Below are positions 25,862 to 33,872 of a stretch of 64,000 nucleotides of DNA, piece by piece. The position numbers were made by a program, and so were the translations under genes. The notes under the pieces were generated by a model that was not told the origin of the DNA, searched no databases, and worked only from the letters and a program-made list of their open reading frames with translations. Location of the stretch: the IMG/VR virus record IMGVR_UViG_3300022213_000004. One strand, written 5' to 3'. Each line of letters opens with the position of its first letter. Position 1 is the first letter of the stretch. Origin of the DNA: a virus.

Positions 25862-26395
25862 CTAAACATTTTTTTTCTTTTTGTACCTAACATACCATCC
25901 CGTGTATCTTCCGGTCTTATAATTTCCATTATTTTCGCCAGATACATCTGAGTAATCTCTTTGTTTGCGAGTTCCATTCTCATAAGATTTTTTTAAACTT
26001 TCACTTCTTTTTATATTGCTTTCTATTGAATTGGTTTTTCCTTTTCTGTTTGAAGTTTTTCCCTTTTTTGCAAGTGACATTTTTTCTTTAGTTTCTTTTG
26101 AGAATTCTTTAGCAGTTTCTCCACCGCTTGTTAAATTGTATCCTTCAATCATAGTGTTATAAAAACTTATCCAATATGATTCTCTTTCATCTAAAATATC
26201 AGGTGAACACTCTTCTAGAATTTCGATTCTAAAATCTTCTCTTGCGTATTTTCTCATCGCTTTGTATAATGGTCTCGTAAGATTAACATTTTTAGATGAT
26301 ATGAAGTGTTGAGATATTCTTTTTGATAATCTTTGTTTGGTTTGTCCTATGTATTTTTTTCCACTAGGACTTTCTATGGAATAAATTATCGCCAT
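25862..26395 (-). CDS. GIY-YIG homing endonuclease
   Basis: IIYSIESPSGKKYIGQT...AMRKY...ERESYWI...GYNLTSGG. Confidence 0.9.
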   Translation of the reverse strand: MAIIYSIESPSGKKYIGQTKQRLSKRISQHFISSKNVNLTRPLYKAMRKYAREDFRIEILEECSPDILDERESYWISFYNTMIEGYNLTSGGETAKEFSKETKEKMSLAKKGKTSNRKGKTNSIESNIKRSESLKKSYENGTRKQRDYSDVSGENNGNYKTGRYTGWYVRYKKKKNV

Positions 26396-26427: not shown

Positions 26428-27705
26428 ATGTCTTTAAGGTTTTATACTAATGTTCAGTTGATTGGAAATCAATTTTTGGTTCGTGGAGTAGATAATGGAA
26501 AAAGATTTGAAACTAGAGATGAGTTCTTCCCAACTCTCTTTGTAAAAACTAAAAAAGATTCTAAGTATGGAACATTAAGTGGAGAAGCAGTAGAACCAAT
26601 TAATCCTGGAACAGTAAAAGATTGTCGAGAGTTCTACAAAAAGTATGATGAAATTGATGGATTTGAGATCTATGGAAATGATCGATATATCTATCAATAT
26701 ATTTCAGAAAAATATCCAGAGGATGAAATCAAGTTTGACATTAGTAAAATTAAACTTGTAACTTTGGATATTGAGGTTGCTTCTGAAGCAGGATTCCCTG
26801 ATGTAGAATCTTGTTCTGAAGAAATTCTTGCAATCACCATCCAAGACTATACAACTAAGAAAATTGTTACTTGGGGAGTAAAACCTTTTAATCATAATCG
26901 TAAGGACTTGACTTATCACCATTGTCCTTCTGAATATGAACTTCTTAATCATTTCATCAACTATTGGATGTTCAATGTTCCAGATGTAATTACTGGATGG
27001 AACATTCAGATGTATGATGTTCCTTATATTTGCAAACGTCTGAATCGTGTGCTTGGTGAAAAATTGATGAAACGTTTTTCCAACTGGGGATTAGTTACGG
27101 AGGGAGAAGTATTCATTAATGGTCGTAAGCACACTGTGTTTGATGTTGGTGGATTGACTCAACTTGATTATCTTGACCTTTATAAGAAGTTTACTTATAA
27201 GGCACAAGAATCTTATCGTCTTGATTACATTGCTGAAGTGGAACTTGGGCAGAAAAAACTTGACCACTCCGAGTTTGACACCTTCAAGGATTTTTATACT
27301 CAAGGATGGCAGAAGTTTATTGAGTATAACATTGTTGACGTGGAACTTGTTGACCGATTGGAAGACAAGATGAAACTCATTGAGTTAGCACTCACCATGG
27401 CTTATGATGCTAAGGTAAATTATGCTGACGTTTTCTATCAAGTGAGGATGTGGGATAATATTATCTACAATTATCTTAAGAAACGTAACATCGTTATCCC
27501 CCCGAGGAATAAATCCCAGAAGAACGAAAAATATGCGGGGGCATATGTCAAGGAACCAATTCCGGGAAAGTATGACTACGTGGTAAGTTTTGACTTGAAT
27601 TCACTTTATCCGCACTTGATTATGCAATATTCAATTTCGCCCGAAACTCTTGTGAGTATGGATGATATTAATAATCGTATTGCGGAATTAGAAAAAATGT
27701 TGTAG
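26428..27705 (+). CDS. gp43: Family B DNA polymerase, N-terminal fragment (exonuclease and motif A)
   Basis: LDIEV, TGWNI..YD, YNIVDV, SFDLNSLYPH; stops shortly after ISPETL. Confidence 0.95.
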   Translation: MSLRFYTNVQLIGNQFLVRGVDNGKRFETRDEFFPTLFVKTKKDSKYGTLSGEAVEPINPGTVKDCREFYKKYDEIDGFEIYGNDRYIYQYISEKYPEDEIKFDISKIKLVTLDIEVASEAGFPDVESCSEEILAITIQDYTTKKIVTWGVKPFNHNRKDLTYHHCPSEYELLNHFINYWMFNVPDVITGWNIQMYDVPYICKRLNRVLGEKLMKRFSNWGLVTEGEVFINGRKHTVFDVGGLTQLDYLDLYKKFTYKAQESYRLDYIAEVELGQKKLDHSEFDTFKDFYTQGWQKFIEYNIVDVELVDRLEDKMKLIELALTMAYDAKVNYADVFYQVRMWDNIIYNYLKKRNIVIPPRNKSQKNEKYAGAYVKEPIPGKYDYVVSFDLNSLYPHLIMQYSISPETLVSMDDINNRIAELEKML

Positions 27706-27747
27706 AATATCCACACATTATAAATAATAAAGTGTGGATAAAACTAA

Positions 27748-28308
27748 ATGCAACCAAAATTCAATATAACAAAAGAACAGTTAAAACAACTTTATATTGT
27801 TGATAACAAAAGTAGAAAAGAGTGTGCTGAATTTTTTGGTTGTTCTGACCCACTTATTAAGCAAAAAATACAAAAATATGGGTTGCAAAAACCTAAACAT
27901 TTGGAGAACAAAAATAAAGAAAGAAAAGAAACTCTTTTTTGTGAAAATTGTGGTTCTCCATTCACTGTAAGTAGATTTAGAGCAACAAGTGAAAAATGGA
28001 AACTTCGGTTTTGTTCTCATTCTTGTTCTTCTAAATTTAGATATTTGGGTGAAGAGCATAAAAGAGCGGTTTTGAATTCTATTTCTGCTCGCAGAAGATG
28101 TAGAATGAGAGATGCTTTTGATGAAACTTCAAACCAACAAAAAATAAATGAAATATATTGCGAAGCAAAAAGATTAACTGAAGAAACTGGTATTCCTCAC
28201 GAAGTAGACCATATTATTCCAATTTCAAAAGGAGGAAAACATCACGAAGATAATTTACAAATTATCACGATGAGTGAAAATCGTAAAAAACATAGTAAAA
28301 TTATCTAA
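27748..28308 (+). CDS. HNH endonuclease inserted in gp43
   Basis: CENCG..FCSHSC, HEVDHIIPISKGGKHHEDNLQI. Confidence 0.9.
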   Translation: MQPKFNITKEQLKQLYIVDNKSRKECAEFFGCSDPLIKQKIQKYGLQKPKHLENKNKERKETLFCENCGSPFTVSRFRATSEKWKLRFCSHSCSSKFRYLGEEHKRAVLNSISARRRCRMRDAFDETSNQQKINEIYCEAKRLTEETGIPHEVDHIIPISKGGKHHEDNLQIITMSENRKKHSKII

Positions 28309-28309
28309 A

Positions 28310-28474
28310 ATGACTTACGAAGAAGAATACCAACCAAGAAATAGAGAAAAATCAAAACAAGCAAAATATGGAATGATATGGTGTGCTTATTGTGATAGAG
28401 ATATGGTAGGAGATATTGGTAAATGTTCTTACTGTGGAAGATTTAATAACAGAAAGAAAATTCGCTATGAGTAA
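28310..28474 (+). CDS. Small zinc-ribbon protein inside the gp43 insertion
   Basis: 54 aa with CAYC...CSYC; stop overlaps the start of the gp43 C-terminal fragment. Confidence 0.6.
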   Translation: MTYEEEYQPRNREKSKQAKYGMIWCAYCDRDMVGDIGKCSYCGRFNNRKKIRYE

Positions 28475-29825
28475 TAATATGTGGAAAGATGTTCGTAAAA
28501 TGTCTTCTAAAGAAATTAAAGAAGAGTTGGAGGCACTTAAGAAAGTAAGAGAACTTTCTAATAAAGCAAATGTAGATAAACTCCTAAAACAAGAGTTAGA
28601 TTTAGAACCTTTACAAAAGGTAAATCTTACTATGACTGCTAATGGAGCACTTTATCGCAGAGTAAAAGGTATGCTTCCCGAACTAATGGAAAAAATGTAT
28701 CAAGACCGAGTAATCTTCAAGAAGAAAATGATTGAAGCGAAAAAAGAATATGAGAAAACCAAGAACAAAGAACTTGTAAAAGAAATTGCCCGTTGTAATA
28801 ATATTCAGATGGCAAAGAAGATTTCTCTGAATTCTGCTTATGGTGCTATTGGGAACCAGTATTTCCGTTATTATAAACTTGAGAATGCTGAAGCAATTAC
28901 TCTTTCAGGTCAAGTCGCAATTCGTTGGATTGAAGGTAAGTTAAATCAATATCTCAATAAACTTCTTAAAACTCAGGACGTTGATTATGTTATTGCTTCA
29001 GATACTGATTCCGTTTATCTTAATATGGGTCCTGTGGTTGAAACTGTATTCAAAGGAAGAGAGAAAACTACTCAAAGCATTGTTTCGTTCCTTGATAAGG
29101 TCGCTTCAATGGAACTTGAAAAATATATTGAAAGTTCTTACCAAGAACTGGCTGACTATGTGAATGCGTATGACCAGAAGATGCAGATGAAGCGTGAGAA
29201 CATTGCTGATCGTGGAATATGGACTGCTAAGAAGCGTTATATTCTCAATGTATGGGATAGTGAAGGTGTTCGCTATGAAGAACCTAAACTGAAGATGATG
29301 GGTATTGAAGCAGTTAAGTCTTCAACCCCTGCCCCTTGTCGAAAGATGATTAAAGATGCTCTTAAGTTGATGATGAGTGGAACTGAAGATGAAGTGATTG
29401 AATTTATTGATAAGTGTCGTGAAGAATTTAAAAAACTTCCACCTGAACAAATATCATTTCCACGTTCAGCATCTGATGTTCAAAAATATAAATCTTCTGC
29501 AGACATTTATATCAAAGGCACTCCCATTCATGTTCGTGGGGCATTATTGTTTAATCACTATATTAATATGAATAAACTTACAAATAAGTATTCTCTTATT
29601 CAGAATGGAGAAAAAATCAAGTTTATCTATTTAAAAAAACCAAATATTATTCATGAGAATGTAATTTCTTTCATTCAAGAGTTTCCAAAAGAACTCAACC
29701 TTGACAAATACATAGATTATGAATTACAATTTGAGAAAGCATTTCTAGAACCACTCAAGATTATTCTTGATTCGATTGGGTGGAGTGTAGAAAGGACTAA
29801 TAGTTTAGAATTATTTTTTGTATAA
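28467..29825 (+). CDS. gp43: Family B DNA polymerase, C-terminal fragment (motifs B and C, thumb)
   Basis: KISLNSAYG, SDTDS, KKRY; C-terminal clamp-binding SLELFF. Confidence 0.95.
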   Translation: MSNNMWKDVRKMSSKEIKEELEALKKVRELSNKANVDKLLKQELDLEPLQKVNLTMTANGALYRRVKGMLPELMEKMYQDRVIFKKKMIEAKKEYEKTKNKELVKEIARCNNIQMAKKISLNSAYGAIGNQYFRYYKLENAEAITLSGQVAIRWIEGKLNQYLNKLLKTQDVDYVIASDTDSVYLNMGPVVETVFKGREKTTQSIVSFLDKVASMELEKYIESSYQELADYVNAYDQKMQMKRENIADRGIWTAKKRYILNVWDSEGVRYEEPKLKMMGIEAVKSSTPAPCRKMIKDALKLMMSGTEDEVIEFIDKCREEFKKLPPEQISFPRSASDVQKYKSSADIYIKGTPIHVRGALLFNHYINMNKLTNKYSLIQNGEKIKFIYLKKPNIIHENVISFIQEFPKELNLDKYIDYELQFEKAFLEPLKIILDSIGWSVERTNSLELFFV

Positions 29826-30849: not shown

Positions 30850-31392
30850 ATGATAAAGATTCTAAAAACAGGCATTAATGTATTTAAAGTTGTAAATCAA
30901 CTTAAAAAATATCCACAGGATTGGGATCATCAGAAACATCTGAAGAATTCTCAGTCCTTAGTTGATAGAGGATTTGCTGACTTGCCAGTGAGTGCTCTTC
31001 AACTTATAATGGGTGGGGTTAAAAGTAAAAAAGACTTTGTTGGAGATTCTGAAATCAACATCAAAACTCCAGCATACGAACATCACAGTGAAATCAGAAA
31101 GATTATACGCAAGCACTTTGGGAATAGAGAACTACATCGTTGTGGATTTCTTTCTCTTCCTGTTGATGAAATCGTTGGTGCTCACATTGATGAAGGTACT
31201 TATTACTTAACAAGAGACAGATATCATCTTTCCATTGTTGGAAGATATCAATATTTCTGTGGAACTGATAGCGTGATTATAGAACCTGGAACTCTTTTGT
31301 GGTTTAATAATAAGATACCTCATGGAGCCGTAAATATCGGTGATGAAACAAGAATAACCTTTGTATTTGATATGCCACATGGACCAAGTTGA
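30850..31392 (+). CDS. 2OG-Fe(II) oxygenase, aspartyl/asparaginyl beta-hydroxylase-like
   Basis: HID...RYHL...WFNNKIPHGAVN...RITFVFD. Confidence 0.8.
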   Translation: MIKILKTGINVFKVVNQLKKYPQDWDHQKHLKNSQSLVDRGFADLPVSALQLIMGGVKSKKDFVGDSEINIKTPAYEHHSEIRKIIRKHFGNRELHRCGFLSLPVDEIVGAHIDEGTYYLTRDRYHLSIVGRYQYFCGTDSVIIEPGTLLWFNNKIPHGAVNIGDETRITFVFDMPHGPS

Positions 31393-32017
31393 ATTTCTTA
31401 TTCTCCGTAATCTTTTACATAATGAGCAATATATTAGAAAAGTAATACCTTTCATCAAATCTGAATATTTTGAAGATCAAAATCAAAAGATTGTATTTGA
31501 AGAAATACTTTCTTTTGTTCAAGAATATAATCAACCAGCAACAAAAGAAGTTCTCTGCATTGAGGTTGAGAAAAGAGCAGATATTAATGAGCAATCTTTC
31601 AAAGAAATCATTCAAATAATTTCTTGCCTAGAAGATGTTCCAGCAGAATTTAATTGGTTAGTTGATACTACTGAAAAATGGTGTCGTGATCGTGCCATTT
31701 ACTTGGCACTTATGGAATCTATTCATATTGCTGATGGAAAGGACGAAAAAAAGAATCGTGATAGCATTCCTTCTATTCTCTCTGATGCTCTTGCTGTAAG
31801 TTTTGATAATCATATCGGACACGATTACTTACAGGATTATGAACAAAGATATGAGTCTTATCATAAAAAGGAGGATAAAATTGAATTTGATCTTGAGTAC
31901 TTTAACAAAATCACGAAAGGTGGTCTTCCTAACAAGACTCTCAATATTGCTCTCGCTGGTTGTGTTCATCCAGAAACCAAAGTTAAAATTAGGTTTAGGA
32001 AACGTAGTGCCATTTAG
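31379..32017 (+). CDS. gp41: Replicative helicase N-terminal fragment with 18-aa N-intein
   Basis: TEKWCRDRAIY, IGHDY, TLNIALAG followed by CVHPETKVKIRFRKRSAI. Confidence 0.93.
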   Translation: MDQVEFLILRNLLHNEQYIRKVIPFIKSEYFEDQNQKIVFEEILSFVQEYNQPATKEVLCIEVEKRADINEQSFKEIIQIISCLEDVPAEFNWLVDTTEKWCRDRAIYLALMESIHIADGKDEKKNRDSIPSILSDALAVSFDNHIGHDYLQDYEQRYESYHKKEDKIEFDLEYFNKITKGGLPNKTLNIALAGCVHPETKVKIRFRKRSAI

Positions 32018-33077
32018 ATTTTTTTGATTTACATCTTTGAACCATTGCTCCAACTGTGATATTATTTTTTAATGCCGCATCAGTAATAGAATCATAAATG
32101 TTTATTCCATCACTAACTTTTCTTCTTCTTGATGATGGTTTATTTGTTTTTATTCCTTTATTTGGACTCTCTATTGGTGACCCAAAAATGTATCCTTTTT
32201 CTAAATAAAAATCAATATCTTTCGGACTTACTCTTATAAAAGTAGTGTCTCCTGGTCTGTGCATAACTTTTTTACCTTTGTGTGATTTTCCACCAAGAGA
32301 TGCCCATTCTTTGTGAAGTTCTTTATTATTTTTATATTGATGAAATCCTAATCCAAGTTCTGCTTGCTTTTTTCCTCCAATTTTTCCTTTTTTAGATGCT
32401 TGAGTTTTTCTTATCTCTTTTGGAATATAAAATTTTTTTCTTAAAAATTGAGCAGACCATAAATCATTTACATTGTGATTTATTTTCCATAGCAAATAAT
32501 GAACTATGAAATGTTCTCTTTCAGTTAAGTATGAAAAATTTTCTTCATTATCACCACCCCCAGAATGTTTTGGTATAATATGGTGTTTATGCAGACCACT
32601 TTTTTCCTTATACTCTAGTTTTCTTTTACATCCTGCTTCTATTATGTTATGATGTATTTGATTAAACATTATACTCCCTGCTAATACTATTATTTATATA
32701 AAATGTGGATTGAAAAAGAAACATCAATTGCTGAAATCAAAACATTACTTGATAATGGATATGAAGTAGAAGTTGATTCACCTGATGGATATGTTCCTGT
32801 TAATTTTTTTATTAATAAGGGAATGTATGATGAATATGTTTTAAAGGTTGATGGATATGAACCAATCAAATGTAATGCAGATCATTTATTTGAAACATCT
32901 TTTGGATGGATGAAAGCATCTCATCTTTATGAAAAATACCAGATAATGCATTTTCTAACAGAAAATGGTTATAAACTTGGTAGTGTCTTTAAAACGGGAA
33001 ATCAAATACCTATTGTAGATATTAATGTAAATCATCCAAATCATAGGTATTATACTAATGGTATTTCCTCTCATAAT
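31961..33077 (+). mobile_element. Split intein plus free-standing HNH gene (fractured gp41)
   Basis: IntN starts with Cys at 31961; IntC ends SSHN at 33077 followed by Thr; HNH gene between them on the opposite strand. Confidence 0.9.
31995..32669 (-). CDS. HNH homing endonuclease between the intein halves
   Basis: HKHHIIPKHSGGGDNEENFSYLTEREHFIVH; TATAAATA and GGGAG RBS upstream on the minus strand. Confidence 0.9.
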   Translation of the reverse strand: MFNQIHHNIIEAGCKRKLEYKEKSGLHKHHIIPKHSGGGDNEENFSYLTEREHFIVHYLLWKINHNVNDLWSAQFLRKKFYIPKEIRKTQASKKGKIGGKKQAELGLGFHQYKNNKELHKEWASLGGKSHKGKKVMHRPGDTTFIRVSPKDIDFYLEKGYIFGSPIESPNKGIKTNKPSSRRRKVSDGINIYDSITDAALKNNITVGAMVQRCKSKKSKWHYVS

Positions 33078-33872
33078 ACTGGAGTTGGAAAATCTTTGTT
33101 TATGTGTCACGTAGCAGCATCAGTTCTTCTACAAGGACGGAACGTTCTGTACATTACGCTGGAAATGGCAGAAGAACGCATTGCTGAAAGAATTGACGCA
33201 AACCTCCTAAATGTACCTATTCAAGATATTGTTGATCTTCCAAAGCAAATGTTTGAAACTAAGGTTACAAATCTTGCTAAGAAAACTCAAGGTACTCTTA
33301 TAATTAAAGAATATCCAACAGCATCCGCACATGCAGGTCACTTTAAGTCACTTCTTAACGAACTTTCACTTAAGAAGTCATTTAGACCTGATATTATTTT
33401 CATTGATTACCTTAATATTTGTGCTTCCAGCAGGTATAAAGGAAATAGCAATATCAATTCTTATACATTTGTCAAAGCAATTGCTGAAGAACTTAGGGGA
33501 CTTGCAGTGGAGTTTAATGTCCCTATCGTCAGTGCGACACAGACGACAAGAAGTGGATTTGGTTCATCTGATCCAGAATTGACCGATACAAGTGAGTCCT
33601 TTGGTCTTCCTGCTACTGCCGATCTTATGTTTGCCCTTATTAGTACAGAAGAACTTGAAGGTCTTGGACAGATTCTTGTAAAACAACTTAAGAATCGTTA
33701 TAATGATCCTACCATTCATAAAAGATTTGTGATTGGTATTGACCGTGCAAAAATGCGTCTTTATGATTGCGAACAATCTGCTCAACAAGATATCCTTGAC
33801 AATGGAAAGGATGAAGAGTATGATTATGAAGAAAGAAAACCTAAAAAATCATTTGAAGGATTTAAATTCTAA
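32703..33872 (+). CDS. gp41: 125-aa C-intein fused to replicative helicase C-terminal fragment
   Basis: ...HRYYTNGISSHN then TGVGKS, ITLEMAE, IDYLN, SATQT, QLKNRY. Confidence 0.95.
   Translation: MWIEKETSIAEIKTLLDNGYEVEVDSPDGYVPVNFFINKGMYDEYVLKVDGYEPIKCNADHLFETSFGWMKASHLYEKYQIMHFLTENGYKLGSVFKTGNQIPIVDINVNHPNHRYYTNGISSHNTGVGKSLFMCHVAASVLLQGRNVLYITLEMAEERIAERIDANLLNVPIQDIVDLPKQMFETKVTNLAKKTQGTLIIKEYPTASAHAGHFKSLLNELSLKKSFRPDIIFIDYLNICASSRYKGNSNINSYTFVKAIAEELRGLAVEFNVPIVSATQTTRSGFGSSDPELTDTSESFGLPATADLMFALISTEELEGLGQILVKQLKNRYNDPTIHKRFVIGIDRAKMRLYDCEQSAQQDILDNGKDEEYDYEERKPKKSFEGFKF

Follow-up and report, generated by a model that had tools for sequence, protein, structure and literature searches.

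A likely mobile, splice-free gene-splitting element in the DNA polymerase gene gp43 of cyanophage-like T4 relatives

Introduction

How can a nuclease gene occupy a replicative DNA polymerase gene between its catalytic motifs when nothing in the sequence appears to splice it out? This question is raised by a viral sequence of 64,000 nucleotides (IMG/VR record IMGVR_UViG_3300022213_000004), here called the window, in which gp43 is encoded in two pieces within a T4-like replication cluster. One open reading frame (ORF) encodes an N-half with motif A and a second encodes a C-half with motifs B and C; an HNH gene and a 54-amino-acid (aa) Cys-motif ORF lie between them. The initial annotation of the window proposed that the insertion had supplied both halves with helical tails that reunite the enzyme noncovalently. 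We compared the locus with related alleles in public sequences and with known split genes.

Organization of the split gp43 locus

The features of the locus are as follows.

26428..27705, plus strand: gp43 N-half, 425 aa, with the N-terminal domain, exonuclease, motif A, and C-terminal tail (PF03104 and PF00136; phrog_262 over 4-431)
27631..27633, plus strand: Ser402 marker codon, the left cassette edge (Asn in ordinary alleles; every hairpin-bearing allele has Ser/Ala)
27652..27702, plus strand: C-terminal tail of the N-half, 17 aa, putative helix 1 of a protein hairpin (conservation, dN/dS, model of a fused allele)
27708..27740, plus strand: RNA hairpin with a T4 late promoter in its loop (-14.1 kcal/mol, z -4.6)
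27719-27726, plus strand: T4 late promoter TATAAATA, in the loop of the RNA hairpin within the 42-nt gap
27748..28308, plus strand: HNH endonuclease, 186 aa, with an N-terminal HTH-like domain, a Cys4 zinc site, and a C-terminal HNH domain (PF01844, E 5e-9)
28310..28474, plus strand: CxxC..CxxC passenger gene, 54 aa (dN/dS 0.07 on 4 alleles)
28479..29825, plus strand: gp43 C-half, 448 aa, with the fingers, motifs B and C, thumb, and clamp-binding tail
28479..28499, plus strand: start peptide MWKDVRK, the sole part never seen in any fused allele
28500..28559, plus strand: head of the C-half, putative helix 2 of the protein hairpin (predicted helix, dN/dS)
28560..28661, plus strand: cassette-borne polymerase segment VDK...ANGALY, which replaces the resident segment and forms the right edge of the conversion tract (diagnostic columns +4 and +7)

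The N-half is terminated by a TAG codon (27703-27705) 17 residues past SPETL. In place of the window's 17-residue tail and long head, an ordinary cyanophage gp43 has about 8 residues; the initial annotation had expected only a few between SPETL and VDK in a contiguous gp43. The C-half is 72-79% identical to the gp43 of cultured cyanophages, e.g., S-SRM01, S-SM2, and P-SSM2. Its start is probably the Met of MWKD at 28479 and not the ATG at 28467, since the former is the only start common to all split alleles and is preceded by purine-rich, Shine-Dalgarno-like words; the corresponding length of 448 aa is the one given by most gene callers. With this start, the leader has 29 residues. The noncoding gaps had been described as 42 nt, 1 nt, and an overlap. 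The first two stand, but the overlap belongs to the ATG at 28467 and becomes a gap of 4 nt with the conserved start.

Two neighboring loci in the window also carry nuclease genes. A GIY-YIG-like ORF with a NUMOD3 motif (25862-26395, minus strand) lies directly upstream of gp43 on the opposite strand and is a second free-standing nuclease adjoining the polymerase. The gp41 helicase gene (31382-33872) is also fractured, with a split intein: the N-half ends in a very short piece of about 17 aa that starts with Cys, the C-half starts with about 125 aa ending in HN before Thr, and a reverse-strand HNH gene (31995-32669) lies between them. The gp41 split point is unusually close to the intein N terminus (compare PMC2677866). 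Elsewhere, some split gp43 C-halves (P0065, P0096, P0099, and P0110) have an intein domain (PF14890) at a more downstream position, which shows that a single gene can accommodate both strategies.

Splicing, ribosomal bypass, or artefact

The initial reading of gp43 as split without an intein or intron is upheld: the ORFs are arranged as it described, the [HG]N[CST] motif is absent from every plus-strand frame of the junction in the window, and an Rfam search of the gap gave no intron match. A split intein, with an N-part starting at C/S and a C-part ending in HN before C/S/T, was thus not found at the gp43 junction. A group I or II intron was also rejected, as there is no match to a ribozyme core and the gaps of other split alleles are as short as 47 nt and have unrelated content. 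More generally, it is very improbable that RNA splicing, protein splicing, or ribosomal bypass restores a single protein. One allele does have a gap of 47 nt, which is near the T4 gene 60 bypass in size. However, gap lengths across the split alleles range from 47 to 1090 nt and occupy every one of the three frames, a pattern that speaks against splicing or bypass, and the alleles have a conserved stop and an own start codon and ribosome-binding site for the C-half.

Split alleles were found only in metagenomes and not among cultured phage records, as might be expected of a pseudogene or an assembly artefact. This explanation is scarcely credible, given that the split is seen in dozens of independent contigs and alleles, that its parts are under purifying selection, and that no second gp43 was found within the window.

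Distribution of split alleles and evidence for mobility

Public viral and metagenome contigs contain at least 54 distinct split alleles, all with one breakpoint and with the same tail and head (a frameshifted fused allele, L141, is left out of this count). In addition, the databases contain about 109 stand-alone C-half proteins that bear this head. When a tree is built from the polymerase core with the junction left out, split alleles are interspersed with plain ones, and several are direct neighbors of plain alleles (L008 and S-SM2, L228 and S-SRM01, L011 and L064, L113 and L065). A single split clade is rejected (p-AU 3.9e-40; quick tree of 40 rows), and branches with good support require 9 or more state changes, a count made on an unrooted pattern that does not by itself distinguish gain from loss. 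The core of the window is 89% identical to that of the plain allele L064, and another split/unsplit pair is 94% identical. Conversely, the tail and head have a mean identity of 76%, and up to 99%, between backbones that are <70% identical, and the HNH protein stays at least 75% identical while backbones drop to 57%. The scatter of split alleles among ordinary ones suggests that the tail, nuclease, and head move as one cassette.

The residues that most strongly distinguish split from plain alleles are at positions -6, +4, and +7 around the junction, which would bound a short conversion tract at about 27631-28661. Position -6 is Asn in all 56 plain alleles and Ser or Ala in all 78 hairpin-bearing rows (59 of split type, one of them a frameshifted fused allele, and 19 fused). 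The Ser/Ala may represent target immunity or packing against the protein hairpin.

The pattern corresponds to an element that has entered different host backbones repeatedly at a single site, and homing appears to be the simplest cause, although ordinary recombination or repeated replacement by plain alleles could also produce a patchy distribution. Overall, the split gp43 is real and widespread and, as judged from these comparisons, very probably functional and mobile.

Contents of the gap

The HNH protein in the gap is presumed to be the homing enzyme. Its HNH motif is intact in 37 of 38 alleles, and its dN/dS is 0.12. In the window, the RNA hairpin in the 42-nt gap covers the probable ribosome-binding site of the HNH gene. 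A late promoter with a hairpin is the usual control of T4-type free-standing nucleases (PMC3045599, PMC2677866), and the promoter is kept in nuclease-bearing alleles and mostly lost in remnants.

The gap varies among alleles. It is 610 to 632 nt long with the HNH gene alone, 773 to 792 nt with the HNH gene and the Cys-motif ORF, 1090 nt with the HNH gene and a Dam methyltransferase, and 570 to 575 or 658 nt with a GIY-YIG-like nuclease; HNH remnants occupy 108 or 171 nt, and short leftovers occupy 47 to 103 nt. The 54-aa ORF of the window is an optional passenger present in a minority of split alleles, and a 65% identical homolog is found in phage S-SRM01, far from gp43. Other cargo includes the Dam DNA methyltransferase (L020:819-1274 and L139; PF05869, E 2e-31) and, behind the HNH gene in the 867-nt gap of L124, an unrelated 78-aa passenger ORF.

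The HNH and GIY-YIG-like proteins have a common HTH-like domain at opposite ends (42% identity over 50 aa), which is a candidate for a DNA-binding module common to both nucleases. The last codons of the tail mostly follow the nuclease type, with ES-ML-TAA accompanying GIY-YIG and EK-ML-TAG accompanying HNH (L006, L011, L012, and L016 compared with L008, L009, and L017), which suggests that the boundary of a nuclease swap lies inside the tail.

Tail and head as conserved, predicted helices

Heptad hydrophobic spacing had been read from both added segments. In the window alone this is borderline, with the hydrophobic moment of each helix giving p of about 0.06 against shuffles; the pattern is instead supported by the conservation of alignment columns among 38 tails and 46 heads. 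Among the tails, R, I, and E are invariant and positions 7/11/14/18 are hydrophobic. The dN/dS is 0.21 for the tail and 0.13 for codons 15 to 27 of the head, and the tail, the head, and both nucleases are all under purifying selection (dN/dS 0.12-0.23). For the head by itself, a long helix is predicted over residues 10 to 29 (pLDDT 81-90). The start peptide MWKDVRK was also recovered by three scans in which it did not serve as seed. Both tail and head are retained in nuclease-less alleles with gaps of 47 to 171 nt, and these C- and N-terminal extensions are absent from the 56 plain alleles and present in the 19 fused-hairpin rows. Homology to the fused hairpin explains the head better than does its weak PHROG match to phrog_34513 (E 0.002), an unknown family of 60 aa.

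Contiguous alleles and the order of events

Both helices also occur in frame in one chain, in 18 distinct contiguous alleles and in the cultured phage S-CAM7. Thus the tails are not absent from contiguous homologs, which, taken literally, is an outcome that the initial annotation had named as refuting its reading. Its claim that the helices were gained by the insertion holds insofar as they come with the element relative to ordinary gp43, but they need not originate in the insertion, since contiguous homologs carry them. In the AlphaFold2 model of the fused allele L021, a helix at residues 410 to 423 is followed by a 3-residue turn and a helix at residues 427 to 442 (pLDDT about 90; the output gives helices and confidence and no contacts). 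The fold matches RB69 gp43 (TM 0.88), the hairpin follows RB69 residue 431, and the split point of the other alleles is predicted to fall in the turn. The S-CAM7 gp43 (KU686213.1, 133180-135783; L310) is 34 residues longer owing to its contiguous hairpin, on which its annotation is silent.

In the deep alleles L143 and L146, which are 47 to 55% identical to the window, a long hairpin can be aligned gap-free with the complete tail and, after 2 to 3 residues, with the head from its residue 8 onward. This alignment suggests that MWKDVRK alone is split specific, and alleles of this kind could be the donor type. Accordingly, one account has the nuclease inserted in the turn of a contiguous hairpin in a distant lineage, adding only the 7-residue start peptide, so that the helices were captured and not created. 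We give it about an even chance. Besides the gapless alignment, it draws on the replacement segment, which resembles that of a deep plain clade more than the S-SM2/S-SRM01 type. However, fused alleles have three different loop lengths, all with the Ser/Ala marker of the element, and MobA alleles are known to have re-fused while retaining their tails (bioRxiv 10.1101/2022.08.31.505936). Nor does the local cassette tree (85 columns) settle whether split or fused forms came first. A protein search for longer proteins with the head region returned none, which is uninformative as fused forms exist.

In the opposite order, the insertion supplied the helices, as the initial annotation proposed, and all contiguous-hairpin alleles, including S-CAM7, were re-fused after loss of the nuclease; this we rate as somewhat less than an even prospect. 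The fused alleles L021, L085, and L262 are 76% identical to split alleles in the cassette, as close as those are to each other, while backbones differ, and the S-CAM7-type clade groups within the cyanophages in the backbone tree but has the foreign replacement segment. These two groups are more easily read as re-fusions. On the other hand, the loop residues of the short fused alleles are unlike the split termini, L143 and L146 are far diverged in both cassette and backbone, and this order would require a single step to have yielded two complementary helices.

The history that we prefer would begin with a long hairpin, followed by insertion in its turn, spread by homing, and then nuclease swap, loss, and occasional re-fusion. 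A bolder version, which we rate as less likely than not, is that the element gained mobility by inserting into the turn of a surface hairpin already present in a foreign polymerase and thereby capturing it, the helices now serving as a coiled-coil clasp that travels with the element and allows any cyanophage gp43 to be split. If hairpin capture is true, the full cycle would be visible in living populations, from contiguous hairpin to split and mobile form, nuclease swap or loss, and re-fusion as in S-CAM7.

Proposed mechanism and assembly of the halves

Taken together, the data make it likely that gp43 harbors a mobile, splice-free gene-splitting element. The unit of about 1.0 kb would comprise a short coding piece of the motif-A region, helix 1 with a stop, the late promoter with its repressing RNA hairpin, the homing nuclease, a new start with helix 2, and the replacement polymerase segment. 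In a mixed infection, the nuclease would cut an ordinary gp43 near the motif-A region, and repair would copy the unit in. The two halves would then be translated separately from one mRNA and assemble noncovalently. The nuclease appears to be exchangeable and dispensable, whereas the tail and head are kept.

A break at the turn between the two helices of a hairpin on the palm surface would leave the halves with their native interface, to which helix 1 and helix 2 are predicted, from the fused alleles, to add a coiled-coil contact. The two helices probably clip the halves together; their pairing is supported by their adjacency in fused alleles, with the split point in the turn. Of the clasp proposed initially, what survives is a pair of conserved helices under purifying selection that persist after nuclease loss and that are adjacent in the fused model, their origin by insertion being one of the two accounts given above. 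A complex prediction with the 33-aa tail and 45-aa head, both as alignments, scored 0.16 and is not counted as evidence. The fused alleles demonstrate that gp43 tolerates the hairpin but do not show a need for it.

The halves might instead assemble by the native palm interface alone, with the helices serving solubility, translation start, or holoenzyme contact. The halves of Aeh1 NrdA still bind each other without their tails, although activity is lost (PMC3045599; bioRxiv 10.1101/2022.08.31.505936), gp43A and gp43B of Aeromonas phage 25 copurify (PMC2988022), and the first codons of the head show few synonymous changes, possibly owing to constraints on translation start. Nevertheless, the hydrophobic heptad positions and the R/E residues are (nearly) invariant on both sides and the helices of the fused model are consecutive with a 3-residue turn, and we regard assembly by the palm alone as unlikely.

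Significance

Few splice-free occupants of essential genes are known, and the element appears to be a further, independent family of them. It lies between catalytic motifs of a replicative polymerase and is common in aquatic phage metagenomes. The origin and function of such tails are described as an open question in the MobA and MobE papers (bioRxiv 10.1101/2022.08.31.505936, PMC3045599); in gp43, plain, split, nuclease-less, and fused alleles all exist, which opens the origin and role of the tails to testing, and cultured representatives include the fused S-CAM7 and the plain S-SM2 and S-SRM01. In practical terms, the locus offers a natural split site and a short, predicted heterodimer clasp for B-family polymerases, and surveys using g43 as a marker would read split alleles as truncated genes.

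Comparison with known systems

The closest parallel is MobA in the topoisomerase gene 39/60 (bioRxiv 10.1101/2022.08.31.505936; PMC11461880; Bonocora 2011 as cited in the preprint). It is likewise an HNH element of about 1 kb that has inserted more than once at a single site in an essential gene, where it extends the C and N termini of the products and brings along a replacement host segment. Its nuclease is likewise lost or swapped for GIY-YIG, and secondarily fused alleles keep the extensions. The gp43 element is not MobA proper, as it occupies the gp43 of cyanophage-like T4 relatives instead of a topoisomerase gene and has no 50-nt bypass cassette, its C-half being one open frame from the start. 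Its extensions are short helices of 17 and 29 aa, compared with about 44 aa in MobA, and its nuclease has 186 aa with a C-terminal HNH domain, compared with 269 to 279 aa (a comparison of size and domain order only). Homing is demonstrated for MobA and inferred here.

In Aeh1, the nrdA-a/mobE/nrdA-b arrangement likewise places active-site residues on two chains with an HNH gene between them, a nuclease repressed by RNA structure, and tails without an intron or intein, and such tails can be essential for activity (PMC3045599). However, the Aeh1 tails are oppositely charged, have no database matches, and act on higher assembly, whereas those of gp43 are near-neutral amphipathic helices with contiguous homologs.

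Naturally split T4-type gp43 genes are also known from Aeromonas phages 25 and 44RR (PMC2988022, PMC2677866). In phage 25, a GIY-YIG nuclease lies between gp43A and gp43B, and the halves copurify and are active (PMC2988022, PMC2677866), but that breakpoint probably lies some 60 core residues downstream of the cassette site. The changeover between profiles phrog_2062 and phrog_1918, whose lengths suggest that they represent the A and B halves, falls near residues 90 to 100 of the C-half. The split polymerase of T7-like cyanophages was rejected as the same system, being a different enzyme with a different split. Cyanophage-like fractured genes likewise have halves around a free-standing nuclease with a late promoter and hairpin but are rejoined by split inteins (PMC2677866), in contrast to the gp43 junction here. 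The S-CAM7 gp43 (AOV62364.1) has both helices, the Ala marker, and the replacement segment in common with the split alleles but is one continuous 867-codon gene without a nuclease and with a shorter hairpin.

No account of this gp43 element was found in the literature searched, which includes few subscription papers. The same holds for the host site, for short helical tails that have contiguous homologs, for the nucleases, and for the spread in cyanophage-like viruses. The idea in the initial annotation of splice-free occupation of an essential gene is borne out by a one-breakpoint split around a nuclease but is not new, as the strategy is known from MobA in topoisomerase and MobE in nrdA. What differs here is the host gene, and within gp43 a site unlike that of gp43A/gp43B.
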